A stretch of DNA of 64,000 bases, from the IMG/VR virus record IMGVR_UViG_3300043464_002149. The stretch is one strand, 5' to 3'. Below the pieces are notes generated by a model that was not told the DNA's origin, made no database searches, and saw only the letters and a list, made by a program, of their open reading frames with translations. This DNA comes from a virus (Duplodnaviria > Caudoviricetes). Position numbers and translations under genes: made by a program. Below are positions 6,774 through 23,044 of this stretch, in pieces; position 1 is the first letter of the stretch; each line of letters opens with the position of its first letter.

Positions 6774-8054
6774 TTATTGAGTTTTCTTATTGTAAGAAGC
6801 CATTTGTTTCATTCTTTGAATTTCTTCAGAAATTATGTTTTCAGCTACTTGTTTAGATTCCTTAACTTCTCTTGAGGGTTGCACATCTTTTTTGTACATT
6901 GGCATGTTTCCCTCTTCTTTATCTTTTCTCTTAACCTTTTTAATAATTTTTTCACCTAACTTACTTGGGACAACATTTGCAGCATCTTGTGAATTACCCA
7001 TTTTGCTATCTCCTTTTAATGCCATTTCATGTCTGTCCTGCGCTTCTTTTGATGGATCTACATCATAGATTAAATCTTCTAATCCACCACCTCTGTGATC
7101 AGCAACTTCTTCAGATTCTTTTTCATCCGCTCTTCTTGCTTTTACTTCCCCACCAATTTGATTTGGAAATTCTGGATTATCGTTACCATCAAAATTTAAA
7201 TACTCTTTGATCTTTTGTTCAACATCAGATAATGCTTCATTATTTTGTGAACCACTTCCTTTGTGTGACTTCTCATATGTTTCCATACCTGGAACAGCTT
7301 CACTTACCATCTTTTTGATAAGGCTTACTAATTCCGATTCACTTAAACGAATTGATTTTTTAGACTCATACATACTATCTCCACATTCACAGATTTCCTT
7401 ACCACATTTTTCACATGTTTCCCCTTCTTCCATAGAATTACTACCACATTCATAACACTCTTCTTCTCCCTCCTCAACATCAAATTCTTTCCCATCAACA
7501 GTAAATGAATCATCACCATCTTCTTTCGCTTTAGCTAAAGCACCAGTAAATGCGTTACCTTCTTTTGGTTCTGTTTTCTTTACTTTAATTTTAGATTTTA
7601 ATTCTGGCATATCATAATCCTCCAAAATTTCAAAAACACGACTTGCTGGAACTTTCTCACCATACATTTCACATAATTCTTCTAATGCATCTTGTGCATC
7701 TGGTACTACATCACCAGCTTTTTTAGCTAATTTTAATACTTGTTCCATTGTAAAATGGCCCTTATGTGTTGATTCGTTCATATTTTTCATGTTTTCTAAT
7801 TTTTCTGACATTTTATCTAATTCTTCAAATGATAATTTTTCACCAGGCTCAATTATTAATTCTTGATCTGGATTATCTTTTTTATATGTTTCTAAGGCTT
7901 TTTGAGCTTCTTCTTCAGTTTCAAACTGTTCAATAGGTTCACCTTGTTTATTCTTAATAATATAAACCTCATCTGAAATCCCTTCCAGAATAGCTTTTTT
8001 TATTTCTCTGGTAATTGATTCTTTTATAATATTTTTTAATTCTTCGGTTTTCAT
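6774..8054 (-). CDS. Acidic putative head/internal virion protein
   Basis: 426 aa, Glu-rich; GNAFTGALAKAK and LSESELVSLIKKMV segments; short Cys cluster (CYECG, CEKCG, ICECG); TATTTAT upstream. Confidence 0.55.
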   Translation of the reverse strand: MKTEELKNIIKESITREIKKAILEGISDEVYIIKNKQGEPIEQFETEEEAQKALETYKKDNPDQELIIEPGEKLSFEELDKMSEKLENMKNMNESTHKGHFTMEQVLKLAKKAGDVVPDAQDALEELCEMYGEKVPASRVFEILEDYDMPELKSKIKVKKTEPKEGNAFTGALAKAKEDGDDSFTVDGKEFDVEEGEEECYECGSNSMEEGETCEKCGKEICECGDSMYESKKSIRLSESELVSLIKKMVSEAVPGMETYEKSHKGSGSQNNEALSDVEQKIKEYLNFDGNDNPEFPNQIGGEVKARRADEKESEEVADHRGGGLEDLIYDVDPSKEAQDRHEMALKGDSKMGNSQDAANVVPSKLGEKIIKKVKRKDKEEGNMPMYKKDVQPSREVKESKQVAENIISEEIQRMKQMASYNKKTQ

Positions 8055-8055
8055 A

Positions 8056-8991
8056 TTAAATAAATATCTGTTTAATCTGATTTATTACCAATCTCTCAAC
8101 TTCTTTAAATGGTAGATTGTATTTGATTGCGTTTTCTTGAATTGCTTTATCTAAATCTTGAGATTCCAATAATTCTAAAACATTTTTATCCCCTTGATTA
8201 CAGTATGGGAATTTTTTACATTTATCAGCTATTTTAACAAACTTACCACCTGGACCGCCCCACTTCGGAAAATTTTTGTCTTTAACTGCCCTTCCTTTAT
8301 AAATCGTATCTGGGCCACCAATACTTAATGGGTTTTTTCTACCTTTTGTACCACCAAATAAAGGAACATCATATGAACCAGAAGAACTACCATCAGTTAC
8401 TTCGTCAATCTCTTGTTCTTGTTCGGTCATATTATGTATCTTGGTTATATGTTTCTTTTTAATAACTTGACCAAAAGCTGGAGCGCTATAAGCACCAGAT
8501 GAATCACCACCTGTCATTTCTTTCGCTTCTATTTTTTTCTTTTTACCCTGACAATGTGCTTTCTGGCTAAATCCTTTAGGGTTATTACAGTCAATCGAAT
8601 CTTTATATTTTTTAGTCCACTTTTCGTTCATTTCTTCTCTATTTGAAAGGTCAACAACCCATAATTTAGGGTTTATTCCGTTTTTAATTAGACCAGCTAA
8701 TCTAGTGTTACCACCCAATAAATCATAATCATCTTCAGAAAACTTTACAACAATCGGAATTTCAATTCTACCTTTTTCAAAATCCCTTTCAAATCTATCT
8801 TTCTTTTCTTGTTCTAAAGAATCATAATCTAAATTAACGTTGTTTAAAACGTCTTTAATCTTTTCGTAATTAGTTATAACAAAATTTTGACTAGCGAGTT
8901 CAAGCCAACCTTTTCTCCCCATCTCTTCGAATTCAGGATAACGAGCCGCTTCATACCACTCCCTATTAAAATTAGGTTTTACATATTTCAT
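8056..8991 (-). CDS. ParB/Srx-like domain protein with short modular C-terminal motifs
   Basis: PIVVK...YDLLGGNTRL resembles ParB-like PIxV..Y.LIDGxHR; then KWTKKYKDSIDCNNPKGFSQKAHC module. Confidence 0.55.
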   Translation of the reverse strand: MKYVKPNFNREWYEAARYPEFEEMGRKGWLELASQNFVITNYEKIKDVLNNVNLDYDSLEQEKKDRFERDFEKGRIEIPIVVKFSEDDYDLLGGNTRLAGLIKNGINPKLWVVDLSNREEMNEKWTKKYKDSIDCNNPKGFSQKAHCQGKKKKIEAKEMTGGDSSGAYSAPAFGQVIKKKHITKIHNMTEQEQEIDEVTDGSSSGSYDVPLFGGTKGRKNPLSIGGPDTIYKGRAVKDKNFPKWGGPGGKFVKIADKCKKFPYCNQGDKNVLELLESQDLDKAIQENAIKYNLPFKEVERLVINQIKQIFI

Positions 8992-9230
8992 TACTTAACG
9001 TTCTTTAATGCACTAACCCAGAAGTTATTTCTGGTCCATAAAGTTTTATATAGTTCAACAACAACTTTAGTGGCTAGATCAACGATCTTATCATCTATTT
9101 TTTTTGTACCTAATTCTTTTTGAATTATCTTAACCACAATGTCATTAGCCTTGGTTGTATCAAGGAAATCTTTAATCTCCTTTTTTACAATCTTTTCAAT
9201 CTCTTTTTTATCATCATTTGTTAATGCCAT
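8991..9230 (-). CDS. Hypothetical protein
   Basis: 79-aa ORF coupled to neighbours. Confidence 0.6.
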   Translation of the reverse strand: MALTNDDKKEIEKIVKKEIKDFLDTTKANDIVVKIIQKELGTKKIDDKIVDLATKVVVELYKTLWTRNNFWVSALKNVK

Positions 9231-9232
9231 TG

Positions 9233-9727
9233 TTAGTTATTTTTTCTATTGTTCATTATTTCAATTACAACATCTTCAAACGTATGTTGGAATTTTTCCA
9301 ATTTGCTAATTGTCTCAACAGTTTCAGCCTCAATTTTTAGCATATTAGCATTTAAATATAAACCTCTTTCGTTACCAGCAATAAGAACAAAACTTAAATC
9401 ATTTTCAATGGTACCATCAAGTCTAACTGAATCAACATAAACATTAAAACCTTCTTCAAAATTGGCTAGCTCACTTACTTGTGACTTAAAATTCTGTATT
9501 AATTGATTTAATGATCCTTTTTCTTCTTCAGACAACGAAAGGTCTTCTTGATCTGTACTATGGATTTTTACTTCCACATTATCGTTAAGAACAAGGTTAA
9601 ATAATTTTTCATCTTCTTCTTTTAGGATGCTCTTTGATTTTACATTTTCATTAAGATTTCTCATTGTATTGAGCATCTTTTTTATAGAATCATATCCTGG
9701 GTTCTGTTTGTGTAACATTTTCTTCAA
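9233..9727 (-). CDS. Hypothetical (putative virion) protein
   Basis: 164-aa acidic ORF in operon. Confidence 0.55.
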   Translation of the reverse strand: MKKMLHKQNPGYDSIKKMLNTMRNLNENVKSKSILKEEDEKLFNLVLNDNVEVKIHSTDQEDLSLSEEEKGSLNQLIQNFKSQVSELANFEEGFNVYVDSVRLDGTIENDLSFVLIAGNERGLYLNANMLKIEAETVETISKLEKFQHTFEDVVIEIMNNRKNN

Positions 9728-10313
9728 ATATATTAAAATTAAACGATGGGTTTATATCTGTATAAATATCGGAGAAATTCGATTTACTGACTATTCCATT
9801 GAAGTTTTTAGCGTTCTCGAAGAATCCGGAAGATGGGACAGATTGATAAGGTATATCATAATGAGCACAAAGTAACAAACATAGGTCTGCTAATGCGTTT
9901 AATTGCTCTTTTGAATAGGTGTCCCAGTAGAAATACCCTCTCCAACCTCTTAGATGTGGTTCCCCTCTAAAAATGTCGTTAATCCAGTTACTGTAGGTTC
10001 CCATGATGGTGTTCTTGTTTAACCACCCTAGATTTTCAATAGCAATTTTGATTTGTTTTCTATCAACAGAGCTTTCACCAAAGGTTTTGGTCATGTAATC
10101 AGGCTCAATTAATTTGTAGATTTTACCAGTTTTGGTGATACAAAAATGAGGTATATCCTCATACTTTCCTTCCCTTCGGTATTTTAACATCTTAATAAAA
10201 TCGTCAATTCTCCTTTTGGTATCATAAAGAAGAATTTGGGTTTTATTATATTTTTTCTTTTTGTGATTTAAGTTTTTTAAATCAAAAGCTTCTGCGCCTA
10301 GAATTTCTAACAT
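9690..10313 (-). CDS. Amidase_2-fold N-acetylmuramoyl-L-alanine amidase-like protein, Zn ligands degenerate
   Basis: PHFCITKTGKIYKLI, IAIENLGW, YSKEQLNALADLC, GIVSKSNF...TDINP motifs of phage amidases. Confidence 0.7.
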   Translation of the reverse strand: MLEILGAEAFDLKNLNHKKKKYNKTQILLYDTKRRIDDFIKMLKYRREGKYEDIPHFCITKTGKIYKLIEPDYMTKTFGESSVDRKQIKIAIENLGWLNKNTIMGTYSNWINDIFRGEPHLRGWRGYFYWDTYSKEQLNALADLCLLLCAHYDIPYQSVPSSGFFENAKNFNGIVSKSNFSDIYTDINPSFNFNIFEENVTQTEPRI

Positions 10314-10629
10314 TTCTTTGGAATGTTTTATTGCTTATTATTGGTTGCGATTCTTCTATATTTCCATCTTCCCAATATAAATCATCCGGCGTATCGCTTG
10401 GCGTAGCTGAAGGAGTAAACGTCTCTGTTGGCGTTTCTGTTGGGGTTTCTGTTACAGTTTCTGTCGGTGTAGGCGTTGGTGTAACAGTTTCTGTTGGTGT
10501 TGGTGTGGGGGTGCTAGTCTCTGTTGGACTAGGTGTTGGCGTCTCAGTCGGTGTTGAAGTTGGTATTAAATCGGGGGTAGACTGAGGTGTTTCTGTAATA
10601 AAAAGTGTCGTTATGATTTTTTTTTTAAG
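10282..10629 (-). CDS. Start-less PT-rich reading frame; probable -1 frameshift extension of 10611..11783
   Basis: 115 sense codons with no ATG ([33 protein letters not shown]...RNSRRRSF*), bounded upstream by TGA TGA immediately before A10 run. Confidence 0.65.
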   Translation of the reverse strand, partial: LKKKIITTLFITETPQSTPDLIPTSTPTETPTPSPTETSTPTPTPTETVTPTPTPTETVTETPTETPTETFTPSATPSDTPDDLYWEDGNIEESQPIISNKTFQRNVRNSRRRSF

Positions 10630-11783
10630 TCATCATCCTCGTCTTCCTGGATATGATCTCGCCAAAAACTATCATTATTTATCTCTTGAAATTCCTCTTC
10701 TCTAGGTATTGAATTGTCAATATTATATTTCTGCACTTCTTCAACAGCTTCAAACGGTACTGGCACAGTTTCTTCCGGTTCAGTAACCTCCTGTCCTTCA
10801 TAAACCTCAATAGTGTCTTGGACAGTATTTTCCGTATTTAGATCTATAGCGTAAAAATTTTGTTGTTCTTCCTCTTCGGTTGGTTCTATTGTAGAAACAA
10901 TCTCATCGTCTGTATCAAGTTTTCTTTCATATTCATCTTGATTCATTTCCATGACTTCTTCATCTGATAATGCTGGAACAATAGTTTCAACTTCATCTTT
11001 TACTAATGGATTATCAAATGGTTCATTATATAAACCTAATTCTTCATCTAATCTCATCATTTCACTGAGGATCTCATCTATTTTTTCTTTAGATGGTGTT
11101 TCATTTACTTTAGGTTGTTCTTGAACATTTTCTTTATATTTTTTGGCAGCTGCTTTTAACGCATCGTTAGGCTCAGGTGGATTTTCAAAATATCTTTGTA
11201 GAATTTCTAAATCTCTTTCGGTTAATTTAAGCCTAGCAGATTCATCAGCAAGATCAGCATTAATTATATTGTCTTGTATTTGTTTATCAATACTAGGTTT
11301 AACATCTTCTTTTAATCTGTCTTCTTCTGTAAATTTAACTAACATATGTAAGAATGATAATGAAATCATCGGTAACATACCGCCAGCAAATAATGCTAAA
11401 AATCTTTTGTGACCAACAAGATTTGTTGGTTCTACACCCATGAACTCTAACAATGGTGCAACAAGGTCTACCCAATCTTTAAATGATTGTGAATTAATAT
11501 CAATAAATGAATAAGCAAAAAATATGTTTCCAATAAACTGAACCAAAGTAACAATAGCAAATGGGAAGTAAACCTTTCTACCCATGTCAGCAGATATTGC
11601 AGCTAATGCTGATAACGCAGCTATTTCAATACCAATAGATAGGTATAATGCCCAACTTACTGGGTTTGAAATACCGTACCATATTGTAACGTGTGATATT
11701 GAAACTATCGCCACGGTAATGATAGGTACTAAAAACGCTGTTATAATTAGCGTTTTATAATTTTTGTTTATCCAATTTTTCAT
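10611..11783 (-). CDS. Multi-pass membrane protein (DUF2637-like N-terminus) with long acidic tail
   Basis: About four TM segments in first 150 aa (VSISHV..., GGMLPMISLSFLHML), then Glu/Asp-rich region. Confidence 0.6.
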   Translation of the reverse strand: MKNWINKNYKTLIITAFLVPIITVAIVSISHVTIWYGISNPVSWALYLSIGIEIAALSALAAISADMGRKVYFPFAIVTLVQFIGNIFFAYSFIDINSQSFKDWVDLVAPLLEFMGVEPTNLVGHKRFLALFAGGMLPMISLSFLHMLVKFTEEDRLKEDVKPSIDKQIQDNIINADLADESARLKLTERDLEILQRYFENPPEPNDALKAAAKKYKENVQEQPKVNETPSKEKIDEILSEMMRLDEELGLYNEPFDNPLVKDEVETIVPALSDEEVMEMNQDEYERKLDTDDEIVSTIEPTEEEEQQNFYAIDLNTENTVQDTIEVYEGQEVTEPEETVPVPFEAVEEVQKYNIDNSIPREEEFQEINNDSFWRDHIQEDEDDDLKKKS

Positions 11784-11784
11784 A

Positions 11785-12078
11785 TTAATATTTACCCAAC
11801 TCTTTTGTCAATGTTGTTATTTCCTCATCAATTTTTGTTTGACGTTGAACATCTAACATTTTTCTGTCGGTCGCCTGGATCATTCTTTTTTCAGACTTAA
11901 GCCCTTCGATTTGTAAAACAATATTCAATTCTTTCTTTGTGTATGTCGAATCTTTAATTGTTTTAATCTCGTTTTTTATTTTAGTTATCTCTCTAGTATC
12001 ACTACATCCTTTAAAGAATGTTAATAAAGTGATGGCTAATACAATAACAGTAAAATTCGATTCAATAAACTTTTTCAT
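11785..12078 (-). CDS. Membrane-anchored/possible lipoprotein
   Basis: N-terminal hydrophobic helix ending FFKGC, then coiled-coil. Confidence 0.55.
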   Translation of the reverse strand: MKKFIESNFTVIVLAITLLTFFKGCSDTREITKIKNEIKTIKDSTYTKKELNIVLQIEGLKSEKRMIQATDRKMLDVQRQTKIDEEITTLTKELGKY

Positions 12079-12080
12079 TT

Positions 12081-12890
12081 TTATAAATATTTTAAGAGAG
12101 AAAAGCTTTCATTTCTAAGCTTTTTTATTGCTTTATCTTTTAGTTGTCTAATTCTTTCTTTAGTGCAACCAAATTCTTCACCCAGGTCGTCTAAATTCTT
12201 TTCAGTACCTGTTAAACCAAAATAACCTTCAATAATTGCGCTCTCTCTTTCATCCAAGAAAGACATCATGTACTTGATTCTATGTTTTAGATCCTCAGCA
12301 CTATTAGCCATATCTTCAGGAGACGTAGCGTTTGGGTTTGCAATTATTTCAAGTAATGTGTCACCTTCTTCATTTATTTCTCTAAATAAATCAATAGTGG
12401 TTGGAATCCCTGTCAATGGAACTTCTCTGTACTCAAGATAAAAACCATCTTCATTTGATGCTTCTTCTTTTTTCTGTCTTTGTGCTTCTTGAATTACATT
12501 TGATGGAATTCTTATTGTTCTAGCATACTCATTCAATGAATAAAGTATTTGTTGTTTTATCCACCAAACAGCATATGAAATAAATTTAAAGCCCGATGTG
12601 ATATCATAACGTTCAATCGCTTTGATTAATCCTATGTTACCTTCGGAAATTAAATCCGAAACATCAAGACCTTGATTTTGATATGTCTTAGCAATTGAAA
12701 TTACGAATCTTAAATTACCCTTGACAACCTCATCGGTTAATTTCTGTCGCTCCGATTTCGATAAATTCTTTTCTTTGAGTTTGAGAAAAATTTCATTTTC
12801 TCTCTCATGAGTTATCACTGGGATTTTTTTGAGATCTTTGATGTAATAGTTGATCTCATCTGTTCTTACGATTGGAGCGGTCTTTTTCAT
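12081..12890 (-). CDS. Sigma-70 family RNA polymerase sigma factor (RpoD/RpoH-like, no region 1.1)
   Basis: GNLRFVISIAKTY, DLISEGNIGLIKAIERYD, KFISYAVWWIKQ, region 4 TKERIRQL. Confidence 0.93.
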   Translation of the reverse strand: MKKTAPIVRTDEINYYIKDLKKIPVITHERENEIFLKLKEKNLSKSERQKLTDEVVKGNLRFVISIAKTYQNQGLDVSDLISEGNIGLIKAIERYDITSGFKFISYAVWWIKQQILYSLNEYARTIRIPSNVIQEAQRQKKEEASNEDGFYLEYREVPLTGIPTTIDLFREINEEGDTLLEIIANPNATSPEDMANSAEDLKHRIKYMMSFLDERESAIIEGYFGLTGTEKNLDDLGEEFGCTKERIRQLKDKAIKKLRNESFSLLKYL

Positions 12891-12936
12891 TTGTTAAAAG
12901 TAAAAGGTTTGTTTAGCTAAAATAAACAAAAAAAAC

Positions 12937-13377
12937 CTATTTACCAAATTCATCAAGAAATTTTTTTTCATCTTCCGTTAAACTCTCCATTCCTTGATCT
13001 TGTATCTTTTCTAAAATGTCATCTAATTCAAACTTTTTGTTTAACTTTCTAATTGAAACCTTAAACGCATCGTGTGAGGAATTTTGTGGTTTGAAAATGA
13101 ATTCCCTAAGTGCTTCTGGTATTTCGGCCCAAAAAACATTCTCCTTTTCAAAAATAAAATAAAATCTAATATGTTCTAAATCTAGAAGCTTTTTTAAGTC
13201 TTCTATAAGGGTTTCTTTATCTTTTTCGCTGTCAAAAATAATGATACAGTTTCCGAGGCTTTCTATGACATACTTGACCCCTGATTCTGAAACCTGAGTA
13301 AAATGTTCCATGCAGAAGAATTCTAAGTCTTCATGATCCTCAAACGCCCCATATATAAAGAGTATGTATGATTTCAT
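12937..13377 (-). CDS. Hypothetical protein with DUF6576-like C-terminal helix pair
   Basis: LDDILEKIQDQGMESLTEDEKKFL resembles the xDxILDKIxxxGxxSLTxxEKxxL motif. Confidence 0.55.
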   Translation of the reverse strand: MKSYILFIYGAFEDHEDLEFFCMEHFTQVSESGVKYVIESLGNCIIIFDSEKDKETLIEDLKKLLDLEHIRFYFIFEKENVFWAEIPEALREFIFKPQNSSHDAFKVSIRKLNKKFELDDILEKIQDQGMESLTEDEKKFLDEFGK

Positions 13378-13410
13378 AGTTAACGATAGGTAATATAAAA
13401 TGAAATAAAA

Positions 13411-14058
13411 CTATTTCTTTTTCTTTAGGTTTATCTTCCAATAAACCCCACCACCAACATATGGCTGAAATTCACCAGTTAAACCGTTCACAACCGTGTT
13501 ATTAACCCCAGCTGATACTTTGTATAATCTATCGTTTTTATCCTTTAAAATAAAGCCTAAACCCATTAATCTCACAACATTAAGCCTGTCAAAGTTTGCA
13601 TCAAACCCAAAGTACATTTGAGTTTTTTTGGGCTCCAGGGTGTAAATCGTGTCTTTAACTACTTTTTGTTTAACTTTTGCATCAAAACTCCTAGACAAAA
13701 CTTTATTTTCACTAATGGTTTCTTTTAATTCAATAACACCTAAACCGTTAGGTAATGTTAAATTATCATTAGTTTCAACTTTTGCATAGTAATTCTTAAG
13801 AATTGCTGCACTATCTACAGAGATTAGTACGGTGTCGTGTACAGCATATGGTATTTGAACTTCATATGGTACATCAACTTCGACCTCAACCAGTGAATCA
13901 ACGAAAATGGTATCATGCACTGGATAAGGTACAGAGTCAATTATTTGATGGTACTTAGTTCTATTGGGGATTATTCCTTTTGGGTTAATTGCTACAATAG
14001 CTGTTGTTGCTATTAATAGTATTATAATAATATTCCTAATATCTAAGTATTTTTTCAT
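13411..14058 (-). CDS. Membrane-anchored envelope protein (spanin-cluster member)
   Basis: N-terminal TM, VHDTI/VHDTV repeats, beta-rich C-terminus ending in aromatic strand (YVGGGVYWKINL). Confidence 0.5.
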   Translation of the reverse strand: MKKYLDIRNIIIILLIATTAIVAINPKGIIPNRTKYHQIIDSVPYPVHDTIFVDSLVEVEVDVPYEVQIPYAVHDTVLISVDSAAILKNYYAKVETNDNLTLPNGLGVIELKETISENKVLSRSFDAKVKQKVVKDTIYTLEPKKTQMYFGFDANFDRLNVVRLMGLGFILKDKNDRLYKVSAGVNNTVVNGLTGEFQPYVGGGVYWKINLKKKK

Positions 14059-14059
14059 T

Positions 14060-14476
14060 TTATTTAAGTAATAACATTGAAGTTGCGATTATCCCAACAA
14101 AAGAACCAACCTTATATAAAAAGGTCTTTCTTCTTTGTCCTTTTAGTTCTTTTAATAAACTTTCCGATTTAGATCTTTCTAAGTCAAATTGTTGATCTTT
14201 TTTGGTGATAATCAATTCAAGATTAGAAATCTTTTGATCTTTAAGTGTGTCTTTTTGTTTAAACAAACCTATTTGTTCGTCCTTAAGACCGATAACCTTA
14301 TTTAATTCCTTGATTTCCTCAACTGCGCCATCACCTTTTATTAAATCTTTAATTACCAGTTTTGCAACAGGTACCTTTAAAGGAACTAAAGTATCAATAT
14401 TGGTCTTTGTAACGGTCTGTGAAAAACTTTTCAAGGTCACTAAAGTTATAATTGTTAACAGAATCAATTTTTTCAT
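14060..14476 (-). CDS. Exported coiled-coil protein with C-terminal TM (spanin-like)
   Basis: Signal peptide MKKLILL...SFS-Q, heptad coiled-coil, C-terminal hydrophobic helix. Confidence 0.55.
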   Translation of the reverse strand: MKKLILLTIITLVTLKSFSQTVTKTNIDTLVPLKVPVAKLVIKDLIKGDGAVEEIKELNKVIGLKDEQIGLFKQKDTLKDQKISNLELIITKKDQQFDLERSKSESLLKELKGQRRKTFLYKVGSFVGIIATSMLLLK

Positions 14477-14738
14477 GTGTTTGTGTTTTAATAATTGTTA
14501 TGTTTTTACTAACGTTATTGATGTCTCCATCAAGATTATCGATTTCCTTATCGATAGTTAAAATTTGTTGGGTTAAAGCTGTGTTTACGTCTTGTATAGA
14601 ATCAATTTCAGTTTGAATCGAATCTATCTTAGCATTATATCCAGCAACATCAGTTCTGATACTGTGACCTTGAAAAATGCTATAAGCGGCCAAACAAACT
14701 ATAATACCCAATAAAATGTTTTGTTTATTAATTTTCAT
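14394..14738 (-). CDS. N-terminal TM coiled-coil protein (i-spanin-like); start revised to 14738
   Basis: MKINKQNILLGIIVCLAAY then long heptad repeat; TATTTAT upstream of 14738; 83-nt overlap with next gene. Confidence 0.55.
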   Translation of the reverse strand: MKINKQNILLGIIVCLAAYSIFQGHSIRTDVAGYNAKIDSIQTEIDSIQDVNTALTQQILTIDKEIDNLDGDINNVSKNITIIKTQTHEKIDSVNNYNFSDLEKFFTDRYKDQY

Positions 14739-14757
14739 ATATAATAGCTTTCTATAT

Positions 14758-14787
14758 AAATACAAAGAGGTCGCAAAAAGCGACCTC
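14758..14787 (-). terminator. Intrinsic terminator ending the 14814..15581 transcript
   Basis: GAGGTCGC-TTTTT-GCGACCTC then TTTGTATTT on minus strand. Confidence 0.8.
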
Positions 14788-14813
14788 AAGTAAGACCTTG
14801 TGATTAGTTATTG

Positions 14814-15581
14814 TTAGTATTTTGTTCCGCAGTGTGGACAGAACTTATGGTTATCTTTTTTACGTTTCGCACCACACTCTGTGCAATAAACGACCAAATC
14901 CTCTATAACAAGCGGTCTGGTTGATTGTGGTTTAATTTTCCACCAATTCGTCTGAAATGGGAAAGTATAAAATGACGAGTTATCATATGTGAATGATTGA
15001 CTTGAATTTGATCCCTTTTCCACTCTACCAGTTTCAAGGCTCCTTAATGAGTTTGTGTTAACAGTCCCACTAGTTAACGAAGTGTTGTAAAAGGTACTTG
15101 TACTTGATGTGGTAAATGTTGCGTTACCATAATAAGGACTACCGGTTGTTGTGCTTCCCCAACCAAAATTTGGATTATTAATTGTTACAGTACCACTATT
15201 AAAATTATATGATGATGTTTTTACCTCATCATAGAATTTAACAACCACATCACCATTATTAGCAATAGCTTGTTGTACTTCCTCATTATTCCCATTTACA
15301 ACGTATGTTTCAAACAAAAACTTCTTTGCCTCATCAAGGTATCTTTCGAGGAATACGCGTTCACCAGGACGAAGAATAATACCATTACCGATGGAATTAC
15401 CGTTCATCTCGATTTTTGCTAAAACTTTATTTTGTGTGGGATTGTAAAGTTCGATTTCGAACTCATCACCGTTGTTAAGATATACGGTGTCAATGTGCTG
15501 TTTTAATCTTTGTTTACCTTTGGTAATGAAAGATTGTGGCACAGCAAAACCAGTTGTGTTAACTGAAATTCTTCTGTTCAT
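14814..15581 (-). CDS. Hypothetical protein: beta-rich domain, Ser/Thr/Asn insert, C-terminal double-CxxC zinc ribbon
   Basis: YCTECG...FCPHCG at C-terminus; own promoter and terminator. Confidence 0.7.
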   Translation of the reverse strand: MNRRISVNTTGFAVPQSFITKGKQRLKQHIDTVYLNNGDEFEIELYNPTQNKVLAKIEMNGNSIGNGIILRPGERVFLERYLDEAKKFLFETYVVNGNNEEVQQAIANNGDVVVKFYDEVKTSSYNFNSGTVTINNPNFGWGSTTTGSPYYGNATFTTSSTSTFYNTSLTSGTVNTNSLRSLETGRVEKGSNSSQSFTYDNSSFYTFPFQTNWWKIKPQSTRPLVIEDLVVYCTECGAKRKKDNHKFCPHCGTKY

Positions 15582-15678
15582 TTCCTTATATTTTTTTTGT
15601 ATTTGAACCCGAATTCGCTGGTATCAATTCCAACTCAAATGCCACAAGGACACTTCCGATTCAACCACAAGGTCTAAT
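15582..15678 (-). ncRNA. Structured 5' leader RNA (cis-regulatory candidate)
   Basis: GC-richer island; long hairpin 15640-15601, short hairpin ~15654-15639, 5' strand 15675-15663 complementary to 3' UTR 14805-14793. Confidence 0.6.
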
Positions 15679-15682
15679 AATA

Positions 15683-15711
15683 AGTATATAAAAAACATAA
15701 AAAAAAGGAAA
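15683..15711 (-). promoter_or_regulatory. Sigma70-type promoter for leader + zinc-ribbon gene
   Basis: TTTCCT-N17-TATACT, placing +1 at about 15678-15675. Confidence 0.5.
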
Positions 15712-15727
15712 GTTAAAAACCTTCCTT
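15699..15727 (-). terminator. Intrinsic terminator after clpP
   Basis: AAGGAAGG-TTTTTAA-CTTTCCTT (one G-U) followed by T-run. Confidence 0.7.
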
Positions 15728-15755
15728 TTTAAAAAAAAACGTGAATACAACTAAC

Positions 15756-16430
15756 CTATTTTTTCTTTTTAACAATTTCATCAATAATACCGTATGCTAA
15801 TGCATCTTCAGCAGATAACCACAAATCTCTAGATGCGTCTTGCATTACTTGCTTTCCATCCTTATCACAATAACCACCCAATAAATCAAAAAGTAAATTA
15901 TTAAGTTTTTCCCATTCAATCATATCGATCTTAGCATCTTGAATGTTCCCGTGAAATCCACCACTGGATTGATGCAACATGGTTCTAGAAAATCTAAGAG
16001 ACCCTCTTTTACCTTTTGTTCCGGCGCCTAATAAAATAGACCCCATCGAAGCTGCCATTCCTGTATTAATTGTTCTAATATCAGATGTAATGTATTCCAT
16101 AACATCAACCATTGATAGACCAGATTTAACTGAACCACCTGGGCTGTCAATGTGCATGGTAATATCATTATTATCTAAACTATCCAAGAACATTAACTGA
16201 GCTTGAACAACAGTTGACATGTGATCGTTTACCTCACCTGCCACCCAGATAATTCTTTCCATCATTAATCTACTGAACACATCCATTACTGTTACATTCA
16301 ATGATCTTTCCTCAAGAATGTATGGTGTTAAACTGCTCTCAATATTTTTATTGAAATTGTGTAAGTCTAAAGAAGAGATTCCTCTATCTTTCGCATAAAG
16401 ACCAAAATGTCTTAAATCTTTTTGATTCAT
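15756..16430 (-). CDS. clpP: ATP-dependent Clp protease proteolytic subunit
   Basis: DVFSRLMMERII, IDSPGGSV, GMAASMG (Ser), MLHQ (His), RDLWLSAEDALAYGIIDEI (Asp). Confidence 0.95.
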   Translation of the reverse strand: MNQKDLRHFGLYAKDRGISSLDLHNFNKNIESSLTPYILEERSLNVTVMDVFSRLMMERIIWVAGEVNDHMSTVVQAQLMFLDSLDNNDITMHIDSPGGSVKSGLSMVDVMEYITSDIRTINTGMAASMGSILLGAGTKGKRGSLRFSRTMLHQSSGGFHGNIQDAKIDMIEWEKLNNLLFDLLGGYCDKDGKQVMQDASRDLWLSAEDALAYGIIDEIVKKKK

Positions 16431-16455
16431 ATAATTAGTATTTCAACTGTATAAG

Positions 16456-16463
16456 CAAATATA
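16456..16463 (-). promoter_or_regulatory. TATATTTG, matching Bacteroidota housekeeping -7 box TAnnTTTG, upstream of clpP
   Basis: Exact match ~26-33 nt upstream of ATG; no clear -33 TTTG at canonical spacing. Confidence 0.4.
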
Positions 16464-16505
16464 GTTAAAAGTGACCAATAAAAAAAACAATATTGTAAAA
16501 TATTT

Positions 16506-17327
16506 ATGAATATGCTTAAATTTAAAAATGTAATTAATGAAATGATGGTTAGTTCCCTTCCTAGTCAAAAATTATTAAGATGGTTTCTAGATAGGGTTGA
16601 TCATACTTTTGTTTTTTTTGATACCGAAACAACTGGTTTGGATAGAAACCCATCTGATAAGCCGATTAACCAGTTGACACAAATTGGCGCCATTGCAACT
16701 CAAATCAATGGTGAAACATTACGTTTTTTTGAGTTGGATAGATTTAATATAAAAATTAAATTAAATGATGATTTGAGGGGCCAAATGCAAGATGAACCAG
16801 ATGCCCCAGAAGATCCTGAAAGCCCTGAATATAAAAAATGGTTGTTTGGTACTAAAAAAGGTATTTTAAAGTATAACCATTATGATTTAGAAAATTCTGA
16901 ATCTTTTGAAGAAGAAAGAGAGGCACTTAAAAAATTCGAAGCATTTTTAAGAAATTATGATAATGTCACTTTAATTGCTCACAACGCACCGTTTGATTTA
17001 AAATGGATAGAATTTCACGAAGCATTTAAGGATAGCACTGACGAAATAATCGATAGTATAGATTTCTTTAGGAATTTTTTCTTCCCAATATTAGGTATGT
17101 TGGCTAGAGACAAAGCTAAATACCAATATAAGTATGATCAATTTAAGTCAACTAGTAATGACAATAAATCAGCAGCACTAGGTAATATCGCAGCCGGATT
17201 TGCAGATGAGGTAAACCAATTAAAAGCAAAATTAAAAGGTGCTCATGATGCTGTTGTCGACTGCGAAATAACCGTGGATGTGCTTGAAAAGGGGTTATTG
17301 ATGGTATATCAACATTTAAATGATTAA
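16506..17327 (+). CDS. DEDDh 3'-5' exonuclease (DnaQ/epsilon-like); true start may be 16512
   Basis: FFDTETTG (ExoI), IAHNAPFD (ExoII), HDAVVDC (ExoIII). Confidence 0.88.
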   Translation: MNMLKFKNVINEMMVSSLPSQKLLRWFLDRVDHTFVFFDTETTGLDRNPSDKPINQLTQIGAIATQINGETLRFFELDRFNIKIKLNDDLRGQMQDEPDAPEDPESPEYKKWLFGTKKGILKYNHYDLENSESFEEEREALKKFEAFLRNYDNVTLIAHNAPFDLKWIEFHEAFKDSTDEIIDSIDFFRNFFFPILGMLARDKAKYQYKYDQFKSTSNDNKSAALGNIAAGFADEVNQLKAKLKGAHDAVVDCEITVDVLEKGLLMVYQHLND

Positions 17328-19657
17328 CTAATCCCTTTTGAAATATAATCAATCGAAGAAACGTTTTCCTCTTTTTTAACCATGATCATGTTATCAGACC
17401 AGTTCCTAATCAATGGATTGTGTGAGATAACAAAGATATGTTCAAAGTAGTTTTTGATTTTTTTAAAGAACTCACCAACCATATCTAAATTCTCATCAGC
17501 AATTTTACCAAAGACTTCATCCATAACAACAATATTTGGTTTAGGTAATGAAGATACTTTAGTAAGAACGCTTCTTAATGCTAATGACGAAATTGTTCTC
17601 TCATAACCAGATCCAGAAGTTAATGGTTTAACAACTCTTGTTTCAGAATCAATCATGAGAAATTCTAATTCGTTTTTATCATTAATGTTTAATTCTAAAT
17701 TGAAGTAGCAGCTATCTGAAAGTAATCTACTTAGTTCTTGATTGATAAGTGGTATCATGTTTTTCAAAATTGTTTTTGAAATACCGTTTTTACCATATGT
17801 CATTAAGTAAACCTTAAACACCCCTTGAAGTTCTTCTTCCGCTTTAATCTTTGTGATTAACTCGTTACAAAGTTTTATCTTTTCCTCCATTGCTGTGATA
17901 TTCATTTTGTTTCTTTCAATTGTATTGTTCGAAACACGTATATCAGCATTAACAGTTTCTAGTTTAGTTCTAAGAGACAATAACTCACCATCTATTTTTT
18001 GATTTTCATCTAACTTCTTTCTGTTATTCTCATAGTTATCTAACTTGGCTTGTTTAAGATTGATTTCTAAATCCTTTTGATCCGCTTCGAGTTCATAACG
18101 AGCCTTTCTAAGTTTGTTTCTCTCATAATTGTCAAACTCAGACTTAAGTGATTCAAACCCGTCTGATTGCTTTTTTAAAGCGTCAAGTTCGGCTTGTTGT
18201 TCATCAGCACCAGAAGATACTTCCTGAATTTCTTTTTTTAATTTTTCAATCTCGTCAGTGTGATCAACTTCATCCAAAGCTCTTTTACAAGTTGGACAAA
18301 TTTTACCCTCTTCTAATTGCTTAACAAGTTTTTCTTTCTCTGTTTTTGTATGTTTAAACGCAACAATTAATGAATAAACATCACCCATTTTCTCCTTCAA
18401 TACTTTGTGATCATCTTCACTATAGTATTGAGAAGGTTCTTTAACATCAATAGCCTCTGCATTTCGTTTGCTAGTTCCTTTTTGTGTCTTTAAATCTTCA
18501 ATTTCACGTTGAAGAGATGTTGGATTAGTTCTAATTAATTCTTGATCAATATCATTTGATCTTAAGCCTAGAATTAATTCTCTCCTGTCTTCTAACTCTT
18601 TTAATTTATTTGCGTAATCAACTAAAAGATTAGTGTGTTCAAAAATATCATCTTTTGAGTTTTCAATACTATTGTTACTTGCTTCAATGTCTGCTTCAAG
18701 TTGTACAATATTATTAGTATTGCTAATTAATTTTCTAGACCAATCGTTATAGATCTCTTTACAGATTTCTTCTTTTTGTTTTAAACTTTCCAAACCTAAA
18801 AACTTAGTAAGGATTTGCCCCCTAGCTGTTGGTTTAGATTCAATCAATTCCTCTAGGTTATAACCTGTAGTAAGAATAGTTGATAAGAAATCTTCTTGAG
18901 TACCAATCGCCGAAGCAATAAAAGTTTCAGTTTCTCTTCTCTGTTCTCCGGTTAGATTTTCTAATTCACCATCTTCCTTTTCTTTATAGAATTCTAAATC
19001 ACTTTTAACAGTGTACTCACCAGATCTTGATTTCTTTCTAGTCAGTGTTCTAGATATCACATAGTTTTCACCATCGATTGTGATGTAACCTTTTACAATT
19101 ACTTCATCATCGTCAGTAAACTTATTAAAAATCTCCCCATTGGTTTTTGTTTTAGTTGTTGCATTGAAGAACAAAAACATTAATAGATCAACACTAGATG
19201 TTGACTTACCACCAAAATTTCTAGGATTAGATTCAATAACAGTAATACCATTCAATTCCGTAAAGTCGATTGAATTGTCTTTACCAAAAGAAAGAAAATT
19301 AGAAAATTCTACTTTTTTGATAAACCATTTGTTGTATCTTACTTTATTCTCATTGATCTTATCGATTTGAGAATTAACACGATTATCTAACCTATCCAAT
19401 AATTCCCATTTGATATTGACTTTGTTTTCACTTAAGAAATCCTTCATCAATGTTTTCTGGTACTGGTGGTCCAATATGTTGTCAGTAACTTCTAGAGTCT
19501 TAAGCTTGGTATTCTGTTTTTGACTAAGCGTTTTTGTAATAACCTGTACATGTGTTGCATTATACTTGTTTTGAAAGTATGTTTTAACACGTTTAATTCT
19601 TTCAGGGGTGAAGTTTTCTGCAACGTCTTCCCACTCAACTTTAATAAAAGGATTCAT
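17324..19657 (-). CDS. sbcC: SbcC/Rad50/gp46-like recombination ATPase with ~110-aa N-terminal extension
   Basis: FSNFLSFG, Walker A NFGGKST, coiled-coil with CPTC zinc hook, signature GSGYE, Walker B VMDEVFG, VISH. Confidence 0.9.
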   Translation of the reverse strand: MNPFIKVEWEDVAENFTPERIKRVKTYFQNKYNATHVQVITKTLSQKQNTKLKTLEVTDNILDHQYQKTLMKDFLSENKVNIKWELLDRLDNRVNSQIDKINENKVRYNKWFIKKVEFSNFLSFGKDNSIDFTELNGITVIESNPRNFGGKSTSSVDLLMFLFFNATTKTKTNGEIFNKFTDDDEVIVKGYITIDGENYVISRTLTRKKSRSGEYTVKSDLEFYKEKEDGELENLTGEQRRETETFIASAIGTQEDFLSTILTTGYNLEELIESKPTARGQILTKFLGLESLKQKEEICKEIYNDWSRKLISNTNNIVQLEADIEASNNSIENSKDDIFEHTNLLVDYANKLKELEDRRELILGLRSNDIDQELIRTNPTSLQREIEDLKTQKGTSKRNAEAIDVKEPSQYYSEDDHKVLKEKMGDVYSLIVAFKHTKTEKEKLVKQLEEGKICPTCKRALDEVDHTDEIEKLKKEIQEVSSGADEQQAELDALKKQSDGFESLKSEFDNYERNKLRKARYELEADQKDLEINLKQAKLDNYENNRKKLDENQKIDGELLSLRTKLETVNADIRVSNNTIERNKMNITAMEEKIKLCNELITKIKAEEELQGVFKVYLMTYGKNGISKTILKNMIPLINQELSRLLSDSCYFNLELNINDKNELEFLMIDSETRVVKPLTSGSGYERTISSLALRSVLTKVSSLPKPNIVVMDEVFGKIADENLDMVGEFFKKIKNYFEHIFVISHNPLIRNWSDNMIMVKKEENVSSIDYISKGIS

Positions 19658-19702
19658 ATCTGTTAAAGATAATTGTTTTAACTTGAAATTAAAAATTTTT
19701 TC

Positions 19703-20017
19703 TTACTTAATTCGGCTTTCTTCAAAGAATTCAACGACACCGTTGATTGCCCAAACAACACCACATGTAAACACACCATCAAAAAAGATAGCAGGTAACC
19801 AGTGAATGTCCAGAATTAGTTCAGATGGTCCACTTAAACATATGGATAAGAAAAACCCAACCCATGTTGAAGTACACATCATGCAACCTATTAATTCGCC
19901 AAAGAACTTGGAATTTCTTTTGATCCACTCTCTTGGTGTTTCAAAGATCGATCCGTAAACTAAAATTGTTGACATCCCATATCCCATGAATGCCCATAAA
20001 AATAACATTGCTCCCAT
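19703..20017 (-). CDS. DUF1360-like small membrane protein
   Basis: GELIGCMMCTSTWVG resembles the G.LlsCpwCt.vW motif; hydrophobic. Confidence 0.6.
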   Translation of the reverse strand: MGAMLFLWAFMGYGMSTILVYGSIFETPREWIKRNSKFFGELIGCMMCTSTWVGFFLSICLSGPSELILDIHWLPAIFFDGVFTCGVVWAINGVVEFFEESRIK

Positions 20018-20028
20018 AATTTTAAATT

Positions 20029-20529
20029 TTATTCATCATATAGATTATTCAAATCACTACCTTTTAGATATTTTGCTTTATTCATTTTTTCTAAAGCATT
20101 TGTTATCTGGGATAGTTCATTTTTTAATTTTTCATTTTCTTCTTTTATTGTTTTAAGCTCCTCGTCATTAATGATTATTTTTTCAACAGGTACTTCTTTT
20201 ATCACCTCTTTAATAATCACTTGTTTTTCTCCTTTGACTTCAACCGGAACTTCCTTGATTACTTCTACAATCCTTTCAACTGGAACTTCTTTTATTACTT
20301 CAACAGTTTTAATAACCTCAACAATCTTTTCTACCGGTATTTCTTTTATAACCTCCTTGATTACTTCAACATCTCTACCCTTGGCTGTTGTTGGTGTCTC
20401 ACCATATTTTTCAATAGTGAAACCTCTTTGAAATATTTTTTTAGCAGTCCCTTCAATATCACTAATCTGATTTATTTCACAATATTTTATGAATTCATCA
20501 TCCAGCGTTAACGAGTTCTTCTTTTTCAT
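20029..20529 (-). CDS. Protein with tandem (K/V)EVPVEKI-type repeats and C-terminal coiled-coil
   Basis: EVIKEIPVEKIVEVIK, EVIKEVPVERIVEVIKEVPVE, EVIKEVPVEKII. Confidence 0.65.
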   Translation of the reverse strand: MKKKNSLTLDDEFIKYCEINQISDIEGTAKKIFQRGFTIEKYGETPTTAKGRDVEVIKEVIKEIPVEKIVEVIKTVEVIKEVPVERIVEVIKEVPVEVKGEKQVIIKEVIKEVPVEKIIINDEELKTIKEENEKLKNELSQITNALEKMNKAKYLKGSDLNNLYDE

Positions 20530-21313
20530 CTTGGATGTTGTTTATATCTGAAATTGTGAAATGCATGTATGGCTGATTATTAGGTAAATCGAAGAAATCA
20601 TATTTTTTACTTTCCATGTCATAGATACCATAACCATGATGTTTAACGGTCTCACCAAAATTCTGTTGAATCAATGAGCCTACCATACTAGCTAAACCTC
20701 CTCCAGGTAATTTAAATGTTTGTCTTTTGTGAATATCACCACATAGAAGTAAATCTAAACCAACAAAATTTAAACGATCATAACCATCTTCGAATTTAAA
20801 ACCAAGATCCGTTGACATACCTTGAATAGCTCCGTGAAATAAACCAACTTTAAATTTACCATCAGCTTTAAAATCTGGTCTCTCATTATGTTGATATAAT
20901 GAGTAGACTACCCAGTCAATATTCTCGTCAGAGTAAACCCCTTTGTCTTTATAATAAACAATATTATCATTGTTCAATAATTCAACAACAGGTGTTATAC
21001 TATCCAATCTCTGAACGTTATTTTCTAAGAAGTCATGGTTACCAGGGATGATAACAACTTTACCATAATTGGTTAATTCTCTCAAAAACCAACTAGTTAA
21101 AAGAAGTTGCTCATTCGAGATATTAATTTTTTGATGCGCGATATCACCCGCAATAACAATTCTAATTTCGTTGTGCGATATACCTTCATCTGCCCATTCT
21201 AAAAATTTAACACCGATTTCTTTCAACAATTTTTCAAACTGTTCTTTATACAAATCATGCAACTGAATTGTACGAATATGAAGATCAGCAATGTGTATTA
21301 TTTTCTTTATCAT
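20498..21313 (-). CDS. sbcD: SbcD/Mre11/gp47-like metallophosphoesterase nuclease
   Basis: HIADLH, IAGDIAH, PGNHD, FHG, GDIHKRQ, GSLIQQNFGE. Confidence 0.9.
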   Translation of the reverse strand: MIKKIIHIADLHIRTIQLHDLYKEQFEKLLKEIGVKFLEWADEGISHNEIRIVIAGDIAHQKINISNEQLLLTSWFLRELTNYGKVVIIPGNHDFLENNVQRLDSITPVVELLNNDNIVYYKDKGVYSDENIDWVVYSLYQHNERPDFKADGKFKVGLFHGAIQGMSTDLGFKFEDGYDRLNFVGLDLLLCGDIHKRQTFKLPGGGLASMVGSLIQQNFGETVKHHGYGIYDMESKKYDFFDLPNNQPYMHFTISDINNIQDEKEELVNAG

Positions 21314-22077
21314 TATGCAACATATTTAAACATATCCTCAATTTCTTTACGCATATCAGCACACTTAAAAACTTTATAAGTGTCATTACCTTCAAATAAC
21401 CAAACAAAATATAAATCACCAATTTTTAAGTTAGTGTTTTTCTCAATAATATATTTGTATAGACTGGTTTGAAGACTGTATGTATTATATTCACATTCAT
21501 CTAAATGTGAAATTGGTCTTTTAAATCTATTACCAAAATCACTCTTGGTATTGATCGCTTTATTTGTTTTCCAATCCCATATTTGAATTTGGTTGGTTTT
21601 TTTATTCCAAAATAATTGGTCAATCATACCACAGATACCCAACTCTTCATCACCAATAACAAATTCACTTTTTAAAGGAATTAAGTTTGCTTTACTATCG
21701 TTATAAAAATTATCAAATAATTTAACACATTTATCATATGCCGGTTTAACAATGTCTTCACCAAAACGATTAACCGCAATTGATGGATCGTATGGAAATA
21801 TTTTATTATTCCAGTGGTTTTCAGCATAATCGTGAACAGCACTACCTTTAATTGTACTGTAATCTCTTTTGTGATCCCATTCTGCTAACACTTCTTCTTT
21901 AATCAATCCGTGTTTGTTCGCATACTTTGTAGCCTGACCATCACTGTCAAATTTGTTTTTAAATTTTCCAATAAATGTTGTTGCTGATGTCAAAAGTTTG
22001 TCACCAATATAATAATGGTGTGGTTCATCATGATACTTGATGTGATCAAACTTGTTTAATTCTAATAGTAATTCCAT
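21313..22077 (-). CDS. PD-(D/E)XK (RecB-like) exonuclease
   Basis: GSAVH, GICGMIDQL, IWDWKT, YSLQTSLY. Confidence 0.82.
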   Translation of the reverse strand: MELLLELNKFDHIKYHDEPHHYYIGDKLLTSATTFIGKFKNKFDSDGQATKYANKHGLIKEEVLAEWDHKRDYSTIKGSAVHDYAENHWNNKIFPYDPSIAVNRFGEDIVKPAYDKCVKLFDNFYNDSKANLIPLKSEFVIGDEELGICGMIDQLFWNKKTNQIQIWDWKTNKAINTKSDFGNRFKRPISHLDECEYNTYSLQTSLYKYIIEKNTNLKIGDLYFVWLFEGNDTYKVFKCADMRKEIEDMFKYVA

Positions 22078-22078
22078 A

Positions 22079-23017
22079 TTAATCTAATTGTATTTTTTCT
22101 AAATTCTGAAAATCACCTTTTAAATCTGCGATATCTTTATCCATTGGCATTTTAACAACCCAAACTTTTAAAAATAACTTACCAGTATTTAACTTATGAT
22201 ATAATTTTTGTGCATCTTCCCACGCATCTCCATCTAAAACAATCACAATTTCTTTTGCGTTTGCATATAATTTAGAGTAAAGAAATTCACCCATAACTTT
22301 ACCAAGCATCGCAATAGAGTTGTCAACAAAAATACTATCAAAAGCACCTTCAACCAAATAAACTGTTTTGTTCCAATCTATTAATTGTTCATTAAAGATG
22401 ATAGTTTCTTTTTGTACATCTGGGTTCTTATACTTCATCTTAGTTTTTGTTAAATAAGATCTTGCAATGAAGTAATTTAATTTACCATTTATATCATATG
22501 ATGGAATAATAATCCTATTAGCGAATAATCCATCAAATGCGAATCCAATATTATGTTTTTTTAACATATCATCGGTGATGTTTCGACTTTTTATGTACGA
22601 ATATGCCTGTCTATAGTGATGTGTTAGTTTCAAACCCATACTAGGATTTAAAAATGGGATGAATTCTTTTGGAAGATTGGCAATTTTTGTCACTTTTTGT
22701 GTTTGCTCAACATCTTCTGGGCGCATCAGTTCATAAAATTGTAACTGTTTCTTTGTCCCATATCTTTTTACAAGCCTGTGTAAATTGCCGTGAGTATCAT
22801 GTGTTTCCCCACATGACCAACACTTGTATACCCCAATTCTATAATTAATTTCAAGGTTTCCTTTGCCGTCCCCCTCATCTAAACCCTTGATTTCGTGAGA
22901 ACAAACGGGGCAATCAAAGGATATTTGACCTTTGTAGTCGTTGTGCATTTTGTAGTTACCAAGAATATCTTCTAGTAACTCGACAATTTGTTCGAAATCG
23001 GTGTTTATTGTAGTCAT
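22079..23017 (-). CDS. DnaG-type primase (Zn finger + TOPRIM); start revised to 23017
   Basis: CPVC...CWSC zinc-binding domain, RIIIP, VYLVEGAFD, LDGDA. Confidence 0.88.
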   Translation of the reverse strand: MTTINTDFEQIVELLEDILGNYKMHNDYKGQISFDCPVCSHEIKGLDEGDGKGNLEINYRIGVYKCWSCGETHDTHGNLHRLVKRYGTKKQLQFYELMRPEDVEQTQKVTKIANLPKEFIPFLNPSMGLKLTHHYRQAYSYIKSRNITDDMLKKHNIGFAFDGLFANRIIIPSYDINGKLNYFIARSYLTKTKMKYKNPDVQKETIIFNEQLIDWNKTVYLVEGAFDSIFVDNSIAMLGKVMGEFLYSKLYANAKEIVIVLDGDAWEDAQKLYHKLNTGKLFLKVWVVKMPMDKDIADLKGDFQNLEKIQLD

Positions 23018-23044
23018 ATGGTAAATATAAATAAAAAAAACCAT

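Follow-up and report, generated by a model that had tools for sequence, protein, structure and literature searches.

In mRNAs of the hok family of type I toxins the 5′ and 3′ ends pair through the fbi and tac elements, and an alternative internal partner of the 5′ element decides whether the message is translatable. Pairing of mRNA ends is known from a handful of single genes, hok, hbs and icaR, each by experiment in one organism. In the Bacillus subtilis hbs mRNA a 14-bp helix between the 5′ and 3′ untranslated regions (UTRs) limits RNase cleavage in the leader and so governs mRNA stability (Braun, Durand, Condon 2017; PMC5737220). In Staphylococcus aureus icaR the 3′ UTR is repressive, masking its own message's Shine-Dalgarno (SD) region and creating a substrate for RNase III (Ruiz de los Mozos et al. 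2013; PMC3868564). The locus described here is a unit on the minus strand of a 64,000-nucleotide stretch of DNA (the window) from IMG/VR virus record IMGVR_UViG_3300043464_002149 (Duplodnaviria; Caudoviricetes), in which the two ends of a predicted monocistronic mRNA are complementary. On comparative sequence evidence this end-to-end helix is a real, selected RNA structure, and we consider its interpretation as an RNA panhandle well supported and very probable. The unit is a variant of a known but rare kind, mRNA end pairing, with hbs as its precedent. An earlier reading made from the letters of this DNA alone (the sequence-only reading) had proposed a wholly undescribed kind of system, which does not stand, as 5′/3′-UTR pairing is already known from hbs and icaR.

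The likeness to hbs lies in a helix of about 14 bp between 5′ UTR and 3′ UTR in one monocistronic mRNA with a structured leader. The phage unit differs in that its 5′ arm lies at the very start of the predicted transcript, in an enclosed open reading frame (ORF) of 0.77–1.0 kb, and in a three-way-junction leader unrelated in sequence to that of hbs. The phage gene family is backed by family-wide covariation, whereas hbs is backed by experiment, and the probable Bacteroidota-like host has different RNases and makes no use of SD pairing. As in icaR, the 3′ UTR pairs with the 5′ UTR of its own message, but the phage 3′ arm engages the 5′-terminal segment about 95 nt upstream of the AUG and not the ribosome-binding region. 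Because the 3′ arm resembles the start region and is not complementary to it, the arm would be an anti-repressor if it acted on translation at all. As in hok, the two ends of the full-length mRNA pair, and the 5′ element has a possible alternative partner. Unlike hok it encodes a soluble Ig-like protein of 255 aa and not a small membrane toxin of about 30–60 aa, neither an antisense RNA nor an overlapping leader ORF is seen in the unit, and the predicted logic is reversed, closure being the open, translatable state. The unit is neither a type I toxin nor an element like transfer-messenger RNA (tmRNA), the two kinds invoked by the sequence-only reading: the ORF is too long for the former, and for the latter ARAGORN finds no tRNA or tmRNA in 13000–17500 and Rfam gives no match.

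In the window, AGACCTTGTGGTT (15675–15663, minus strand) is complementary to AATCACAAGGTCT (14805–14793) over 13 pairs, 12 of them Watson-Crick and one a G·U (G15665–U14803) on the sense strand. An extra G·U, G15662–U14806, lengthens the helix to 14 bp, the extended arms being AGACCUUGUGGUU(G) at 15675–15662 and (U)AAUCACAAGGUCU at 14806–14793 with G·U pairs on the sense strand only. The helix encloses a leader of about 95 nt and the 255-aa ORF and sits between a predicted promoter and an intrinsic terminator. Its 3′ arm lies 8 nt past the TAA stop codon (14816–14814) and 5 nt ahead of a terminator-like hairpin (14787–14767) with its T run. Thus the 13-bp helix with its sense-strand G·U, and the stand-alone gene with promoter-like site, structured leader, ORF for a beta-domain plus zinc ribbon, and terminator, are as the sequence-only reading had described them. 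Exact copies of the arm motif number two in the 64-kb window, both accounted for by the inverted pair. The arm:arm duplex amounts to −19.1 kcal/mol, and prohibiting the panhandle costs the window transcript 11.8 kcal/mol. When full-length and 3′-truncated transcripts were compared by their minimum free energy (MFE) folds, the panhandle was present in each of the 21 full-length ones tested. RNAduplex applied to the complete flanks was uninformative, poly-A/poly-U pairing with the upstream terminator being dominant. Within a single genome such a helix is not significant on its own. When segment pairs matched in size and spacing are drawn at random from this window, 2.6% reach a G·U-allowed helix of at least 13 bp and 1.4% one of at least 14 bp, so that with about 50–70 genes roughly one is expected per window. 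A G+C-containing, promoter-proximal partner is found at this unit only among the ten terminators in the window. Panhandles are not a general habit of the phage: the other nine terminators have A/T-rich partners only, no better than reversed-sequence controls.

That the helix is real follows from its conservation and covariation in relatives. Scans of viral contigs yielded about 67 distinct homologous loci on huge-phage contigs, which fall into three clades. The arm sequences are wholly different between the clades, and complementarity is kept in each. In all clades the 5′ arm starts about 86–109 nt ahead of the AUG, directly after the −10 box, and the 3′ arm is placed after the stop codon and ahead of terminators that are otherwise unrelated to each other. 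In most relatives the 3′ arm is found 5–23 nt past the stop, the sequence further downstream being otherwise unrelated. Over the 67 loci the best helix between cognate 5′ and 3′ zones has a mean of 11.8 bp, against 7.9 bp for zones combined across clades, and 64% of the cognate pairs lie above the cross-clade 95th percentile. Judged from these sequences, the strongest point for selection is the repeated replacement of whole arm sequences both between and within clades. The comparison of homologues that the sequence-only reading had proposed as a check shows the helix to be a selected feature, UTR complementarity being kept with compensatory changes.

Clade 1 comprises loci with 60–84% protein identity to the window, together with the more distant L063–L066, L088 and L116. 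From 5′ arm to AUG the leader is nearly invariant and the 3′ arm lies 5–12 nt past the stop, while loci differ in what lies upstream of the −10 box and past the 3′ arm (terminator hairpins, neighbour genes). Mean pairwise identity is 94% in the leader and 91% in the 3′ UTR plus arm, compared with 81% and 74% in the N- and C-terminal coding sequence and 58% and 43% in the outer flanks. Diverged members carry compensated arms, GACC/GGUC becoming AACC/GGUU and GUG/CAC becoming GUU/AAC. Three of the 11 pairs show compensatory changes (G-C to A-U at p−2, G-C to U-A at p+6, A-U/U-A at p−3), and at p+7 G·U, A-U and G-C are all seen. Across the 31 haplotypes and 11 pairs 95% of cells are paired, against 27–47% in slid registers. 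Clade 2 (L007 and L043–L060) has the arms AGCUGUUCG / CGAACAGCU in the same two places, with the variants AUAGCUGUUAU/AUAACAGCUAU, AUAGCUGUUCAA/UUGAACAGCUAU and AGAUGUUCGC/GCGAAAAUCU. Here, over 12 haplotypes and 12 pairs, 94% of cells are paired (26–44% in slid registers) and five of the 12 pairs are compensatory. In each of these two clades none of 1000 column shuffles matched the observed pairing or covariation score. Mismatches average 0.52 with cognate and 0.83 with swapped arms in clade 1, and 0.67 against 2.45 in clade 2, where as in clade 1 none of 5000 whole-arm permutations was as good. Clade 3 (L105–L118), with canonical TTGACA-N17-TATTAT promoters, includes the arm versions AGUUAACUC/GAGUUAACU, AUCGUGAUUGA/UCAAUCACGAU, UUAACCCGU/ACGGGUUAA and ACGUAAUUAAU/AUUAAUUACGU. 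A further locus, L002, has a perfect 12-bp arm pair, UCUCACUUUGUU/AACAAAGUGAGA.

The leader enclosed by the helix is a new covarying three-way junction that is absent from Rfam. In RNAalifold analyses of all clades a closing helix P1 surrounds two hairpins and is followed by an A-rich stretch and the AUG, with compensatory changes at 7, 7 and 9 pairs in clades 1, 2 and 3, respectively (clade 1 on 22 leaders). The covariance model R1, derived from clade 1, has one hit in the window (15578–15675, 110 bits), and its weaker matches lie immediately ahead of the ORF in L116, L041, L002, L108, L003, L053 and L111. As these matches extend across clades, the leaders are homologous. No match of R1 was obtained on the two Lak loci searched, L004 and L005. 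With Rfam 15, the best scores on 14600–15900 were 10–21 bits, far below gathering, and none fell on the leader. The topology is shared with the type III hammerhead (P1, hairpin, UGAG, hairpin, GAA, P1′), but this candidate was rejected as the CUGANGA core is absent and the Rfam hammerhead models give no score. A catalogue of 10,006 viral structured-RNA candidates based on intergenic regions (PMC10690425) may include the leader hairpins. Our guess for the three-way junction is that a protein or the ribosome most likely binds there. A further copy of CCUUGUGG (CCTTGTGG) lies in the P2 hairpin loop (15642–15649, minus strand) and could also pair with the 3′ arm; since the loop varies among relatives (CCUUGAGG, CCUCGUGG, CCCAGAGG), this alternative register of the 3′ arm is not conserved. 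In clade-2 leaders (L007, L043–L060; alignment A3, columns 20–55) an AUG inside P1 opens an upstream ORF of about 11 codons, which is probably incidental because clades 1 and 3 have no AUG in P1.

The arms are also a 12/13 inverted repeat in DNA and flank a gene whose neighbours vary among phages, a situation that recalls the invertible segments of Bacteroidota, which are flanked by short inverted repeats. The repeat could then mark recombination or protein-binding sites, as an invertible ON/OFF segment or as the terminal repeats of a mobile cassette, with no RNA helix involved. We regard such a DNA-level origin as very improbable. The arms stand exactly at the predicted transcript ends in every clade, the panhandle appears in all the full-length MFE folds, and the leader next to the 5′ arm is an RNA structure with covariation of its own, each of which favours RNA. 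At every locus the repeat is closely bracketed by the promoter, ahead of the 5′ arm, and the terminator, past the 3′ arm, and the opposite orientation was not found among about 67 assembled loci. Pfam scans of the ORFs from 6774 to 23044 revealed no recombinase or transposase within about 7 kb of the unit. From clade to clade the arms are wholly different in sequence, and no DNA-binding partner that co-varies with them is in sight. The non-Watson-Crick positions across loci are mostly G·U on the sense strand, as the sequence-only reading had noted for the window, and allowing sense-strand G·U lengthens the helix relative to allowing antisense A·C in 44 loci and shortens it in 13. The PeSL cassettes of T4-type phages likewise combine phage genes with variable neighbours, their own sigma-70-like promoter and a stem-loop terminator, but they have direct repeats, occur in many copies per genome and act via DNA recombination (Arbiol et al. 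2010; PMC2839356). The phage repeat described here is inverted, belongs to one gene only in the window with its motif nowhere else, is located within the transcript and shows the covariation of a helix. Chance complementarity without function would agree with the rate at which random segment pairs in the window reach 13–14 bp and with the single helix expected per window. However, it is refuted by a helix conserved with compensatory change in three clades and about 55 loci, and we give chance practically no weight.

By analogy, and with moderate confidence, we favour as function the RNA-level closure of a monocistronic huge-phage mRNA of the hbs type, which would protect the ends and probably also keep a weaker decoy partner at the start codon from engaging the 5′ arm. 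The first 12–14 transcribed nucleotides would pair with the short 3′ UTR just upstream of the terminator hairpin, and by this pairing the message would be closed into a panhandle around leader and ORF. Closure would hide the 5′ end beside the 3′ hairpin and so may protect the mRNA from end-dependent and leader-directed RNases, as in B. subtilis hbs. It would also prevent the 5′ arm from pairing with a weaker, decoy-like site where translation starts. With the arm so held, complete transcripts would be both stable and open for initiation, and nascent or 3′-damaged ones neither.

The competition for the 5′ arm might instead be the main function, as a 3′-end-dependent translational licence that reverses the logic of hok. 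In nascent or 3′-truncated RNA the 5′ arm would pair with the start region, a degenerate copy of the 3′ arm, and block initiation; the 3′ arm, once transcribed, would capture the 5′ arm and free the start, so that complete mRNAs alone would be translated. The clade-1 leader-only consensus fold pairs CCUUGUG of the arm with UAUAAGG just ahead of the AUG (columns 5–11 with 96–102), and L064/L065 show a matching double change in this pairing. The UAUAAGG box has the same sense as CACAAGG in the 3′ arm, and the start region of each clade looks like the 3′ arm of the same clade (CACAAGGUC and UAUAAGGAA; GAACAGCUA and GAAUAACUA; AGUUAAUUACG and AGUAAUUAUG). Cognate arm:start duplexes, at −7.0, −5.4 and −4.8 kcal/mol in clades 1, 2 and 3, are more stable than the corresponding cross-clade duplexes (−3.6, −2.8 and −2.1 kcal/mol). 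In the window the arm:start duplex of −6.8 kcal/mol is far weaker than the arm:arm helix, the order that a licence would call for. The AAGG box is the only SD-like motif in 50 ORF starts and is therefore probably not there as a ribosome-binding site. On the other side, clade 2 gives weak support and L043 and L053–59 give none, L063 and L037 break the terminal pair, and A/U-rich start regions pair loosely with any G/U-rich arm. Since the decoy effect is modest, we treat the licence as secondary and partly supported, and consider it rather unlikely as the main function. Of the hok-like competition suggested by the sequence-only reading, the contest between 3′ arm and start-codon site thus retains some comparative support, while the pairing itself is weak.

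An autoregulatory ribonucleoprotein, in which the protein binds the panhandle-closed three-way junction and represses its own translation like T4 gp32 or ribosomal proteins, appears improbable. Leader and ORF are co-inherited across all clades down to about 30% protein identity, the conservation of the leader is beyond the need of structure alone, and the protein has a zinc ribbon. Yet clade-2 proteins carry a SHOCT-like tail instead of the ribbon and the leader is still kept, and the Ig-like fold gives no hint of RNA binding. A more speculative proposal, which we put forward tentatively and think doubtful, is an mRNA integrity checkpoint in a host without SD pairing. The start region would be a weakened copy of the 3′ arm between which and the 3′ arm itself the 5′ arm toggles, and only 3′-complete transcripts would be translated, with both of their ends shielded as well. 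In addition, the 5′ arm, three-way junction, 3′ arm and terminator, an RNA core interrupted by the ORF, may be a platform for a protein of the phage or the host.

Several observations weigh against closure of the message as a selected RNA function. One arm or both are missing from about a dozen loci (L003, L057, L047/61/62, L108/111, L041/97, L042 and the Lak phages), and these natural losses indicate that the helix is dispensable in some lineages. The clade-1 core helix is nearly invariant, and as covariation is counted on related sequences, independent events are far fewer than loci. The G·U bias falls to about two to one once inheritance is considered (approximately 12 against 6 events by eye), and this modest bias does not by itself decide between RNA and DNA. 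The decoy pairing is weak, with Z scores against shuffles of about −2, −0.75 and −2 in clades 1, 2 and 3, and the 5′ arm meets the start region in the MFE folds of 3′-truncated transcripts at only 3–4 of 21 loci. Promoter and terminator are predictions, and the −35 of the window is weak. The contigs from RNA libraries that match the unit are compatible with DNA carry-over and uninformative on transcript ends.

The loci with altered arms take several forms. Both arms are missing in L003 and L057, the 5′ arm is kept and the 3′ UTR replaced in L108 and L111, and the 5′ region is replaced and the 3′ arm kept in L058. The Lak phage and other distant homologues (L001, L004–L006, L041/L097, L042) have no convincing arms, and no relatives of L001 were found in a scan of viral contigs. 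In the clade-3 relatives L102–L104 the 3′ arm AGTTAATTACGAT is still present past the stop. In the place of the leader of these three loci (L102:1–573) a homing-endonuclease-like ORF reaches up to the gene's start codon; it contains repeated FSEESKQKMSEAK-type motifs and has an end of the form ...YGFIWKYKNLKK. In three clade-2 loci (L047, L061, L062; gene end near 1963–1966) the gene ends in TAG and is followed by coding-like sequence, with neither 3′ arm nor terminator behind; this ending may reflect a fusion, read-through or a recoded stop. In the Lak relatives the gene is readable only with TAG as glutamine (code 15).

The features of the unit are collected in Table 1.

Table 1. Positions in the window of the arms, leader, start region, gene and predicted transcription signals of the unit.
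Feature	Position	Strand	Basis and remarks
Predicted −10 box TATACT	15683..15688	-	Read from sequence; conserved in clade 1
5′ arm AGACCUUGUGGUUG	15662..15675	-	Sequence and repeat search; invariant or compensated in 31 clade-1 haplotypes
Three-way-junction leader	15603..15664	-	P1 15664–15654 with 15613–15603; P2 hairpin 15653–15639; P3 hairpin 15634–15617
A-rich spacer and pre-AUG box UAUAAGG (15590–15584)	15582..15602	-	Weaker alternative partner of the 5′ arm (CCUUGUG)
ORF, 255 aa	14814..15581	-	ORF call, Pfam, AlphaFold
3′ arm UAAUCACAAGGUCU	14793..14806	-	7–8 nt past the stop codon; sequence and repeat search
Intrinsic terminator	14758..14787	-	8-bp G+C-rich hairpin (14787–14767) and U tract; promoter/terminator scan

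The 5′ arm begins 7 nt past the TATACT box, with the transcription start predicted at A15675. TATACT or TATATT occurs at the same place in all clade-1 loci, with TTTACA 16–17 nt upstream in many. In the window the weak −35, which explains why a simple sigma-70 scan does not list the promoter, overlaps the ClpP terminator (15730–15702). The ClpP gene (15756–16430) has its own 13-bp A/U-rich terminator hairpin on the minus strand (15702–15730), the U tract of which overlaps the −35 of the unit. Terminator hairpins of relatives differ in sequence at the same location. RNA-library contigs from four freshwater studies cover 14794–15622 and not the flanks, as weak evidence that cannot show ends; stretches without such cover do not count as evidence.

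The window has 32% G+C, occurs in many lake-water metagenomes and encodes ClpP, an exonuclease, an SbcC-like ATPase, a sigma-70-family factor and a primase, to which the Pfam scans add a phosphoesterase and PD-(D/E)XK. The gene for the sigma-70-family factor (Pfam Sigma70_r2 and r4) lies 2 kb downstream of the unit at 12081–12890 on the minus strand, and the factor could be the reader of the conserved TATACT-type promoter. An SD-like tetramer at −18 to −4 is found for one of 50 ORFs of at least 120 aa in the window. This scarcity is consistent with a Bacteroidota-type host without SD pairing, and the host is probably Bacteroidota-like.

The encoded protein is predicted by AlphaFold (mean predicted local distance difference test score 70) as an Ig-like beta-sandwich (about residues 10–120 and a strand at 210–218), a disordered N/S/T-rich linker (124–186) and a C-terminal zinc ribbon. 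An ETGRVEKGS motif is conserved, and no membrane segment is predicted in the model. Homologues with 32–39% identity are found by tblastn in Lak megaphages and other uncultured phages of 460–735 kb. Fold searches with Foldseek and VIA-align return generic Ig/MSP-like matches only (Z at most 6.2), and searches including the ESM Atlas return viral hypothetical clusters with Zn-ribbon or SHOCT tails. Pfam detects a weak zinc ribbon only, and PHROGs, NCBIfam and PADLOC give no useful match. The proteins of clade 2, which end in the SHOCT-like tail, are about 33% identical to that of the window. In several clade-2 loci (L045–L048) a CPxCG zinc ribbon is likewise present at the end of the gene just upstream, about 40 nt ahead of the promoter, which together with the SHOCT-like tail may reflect domain shuffling between neighbours.

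Our results place mRNA end pairing in one huge-phage gene family, whose three deeply diverged clades share one architecture and offer many naturally occurring compensatory mutants as well as several losses. These natural variants are a ready-made mutational series for the effect of closing an mRNA. The hosts of these phages apparently do not use SD pairing, and the control of start-site accessibility is poorly understood there. Should closure stabilise or license the message, the module could also be of use as a portable element for expression.

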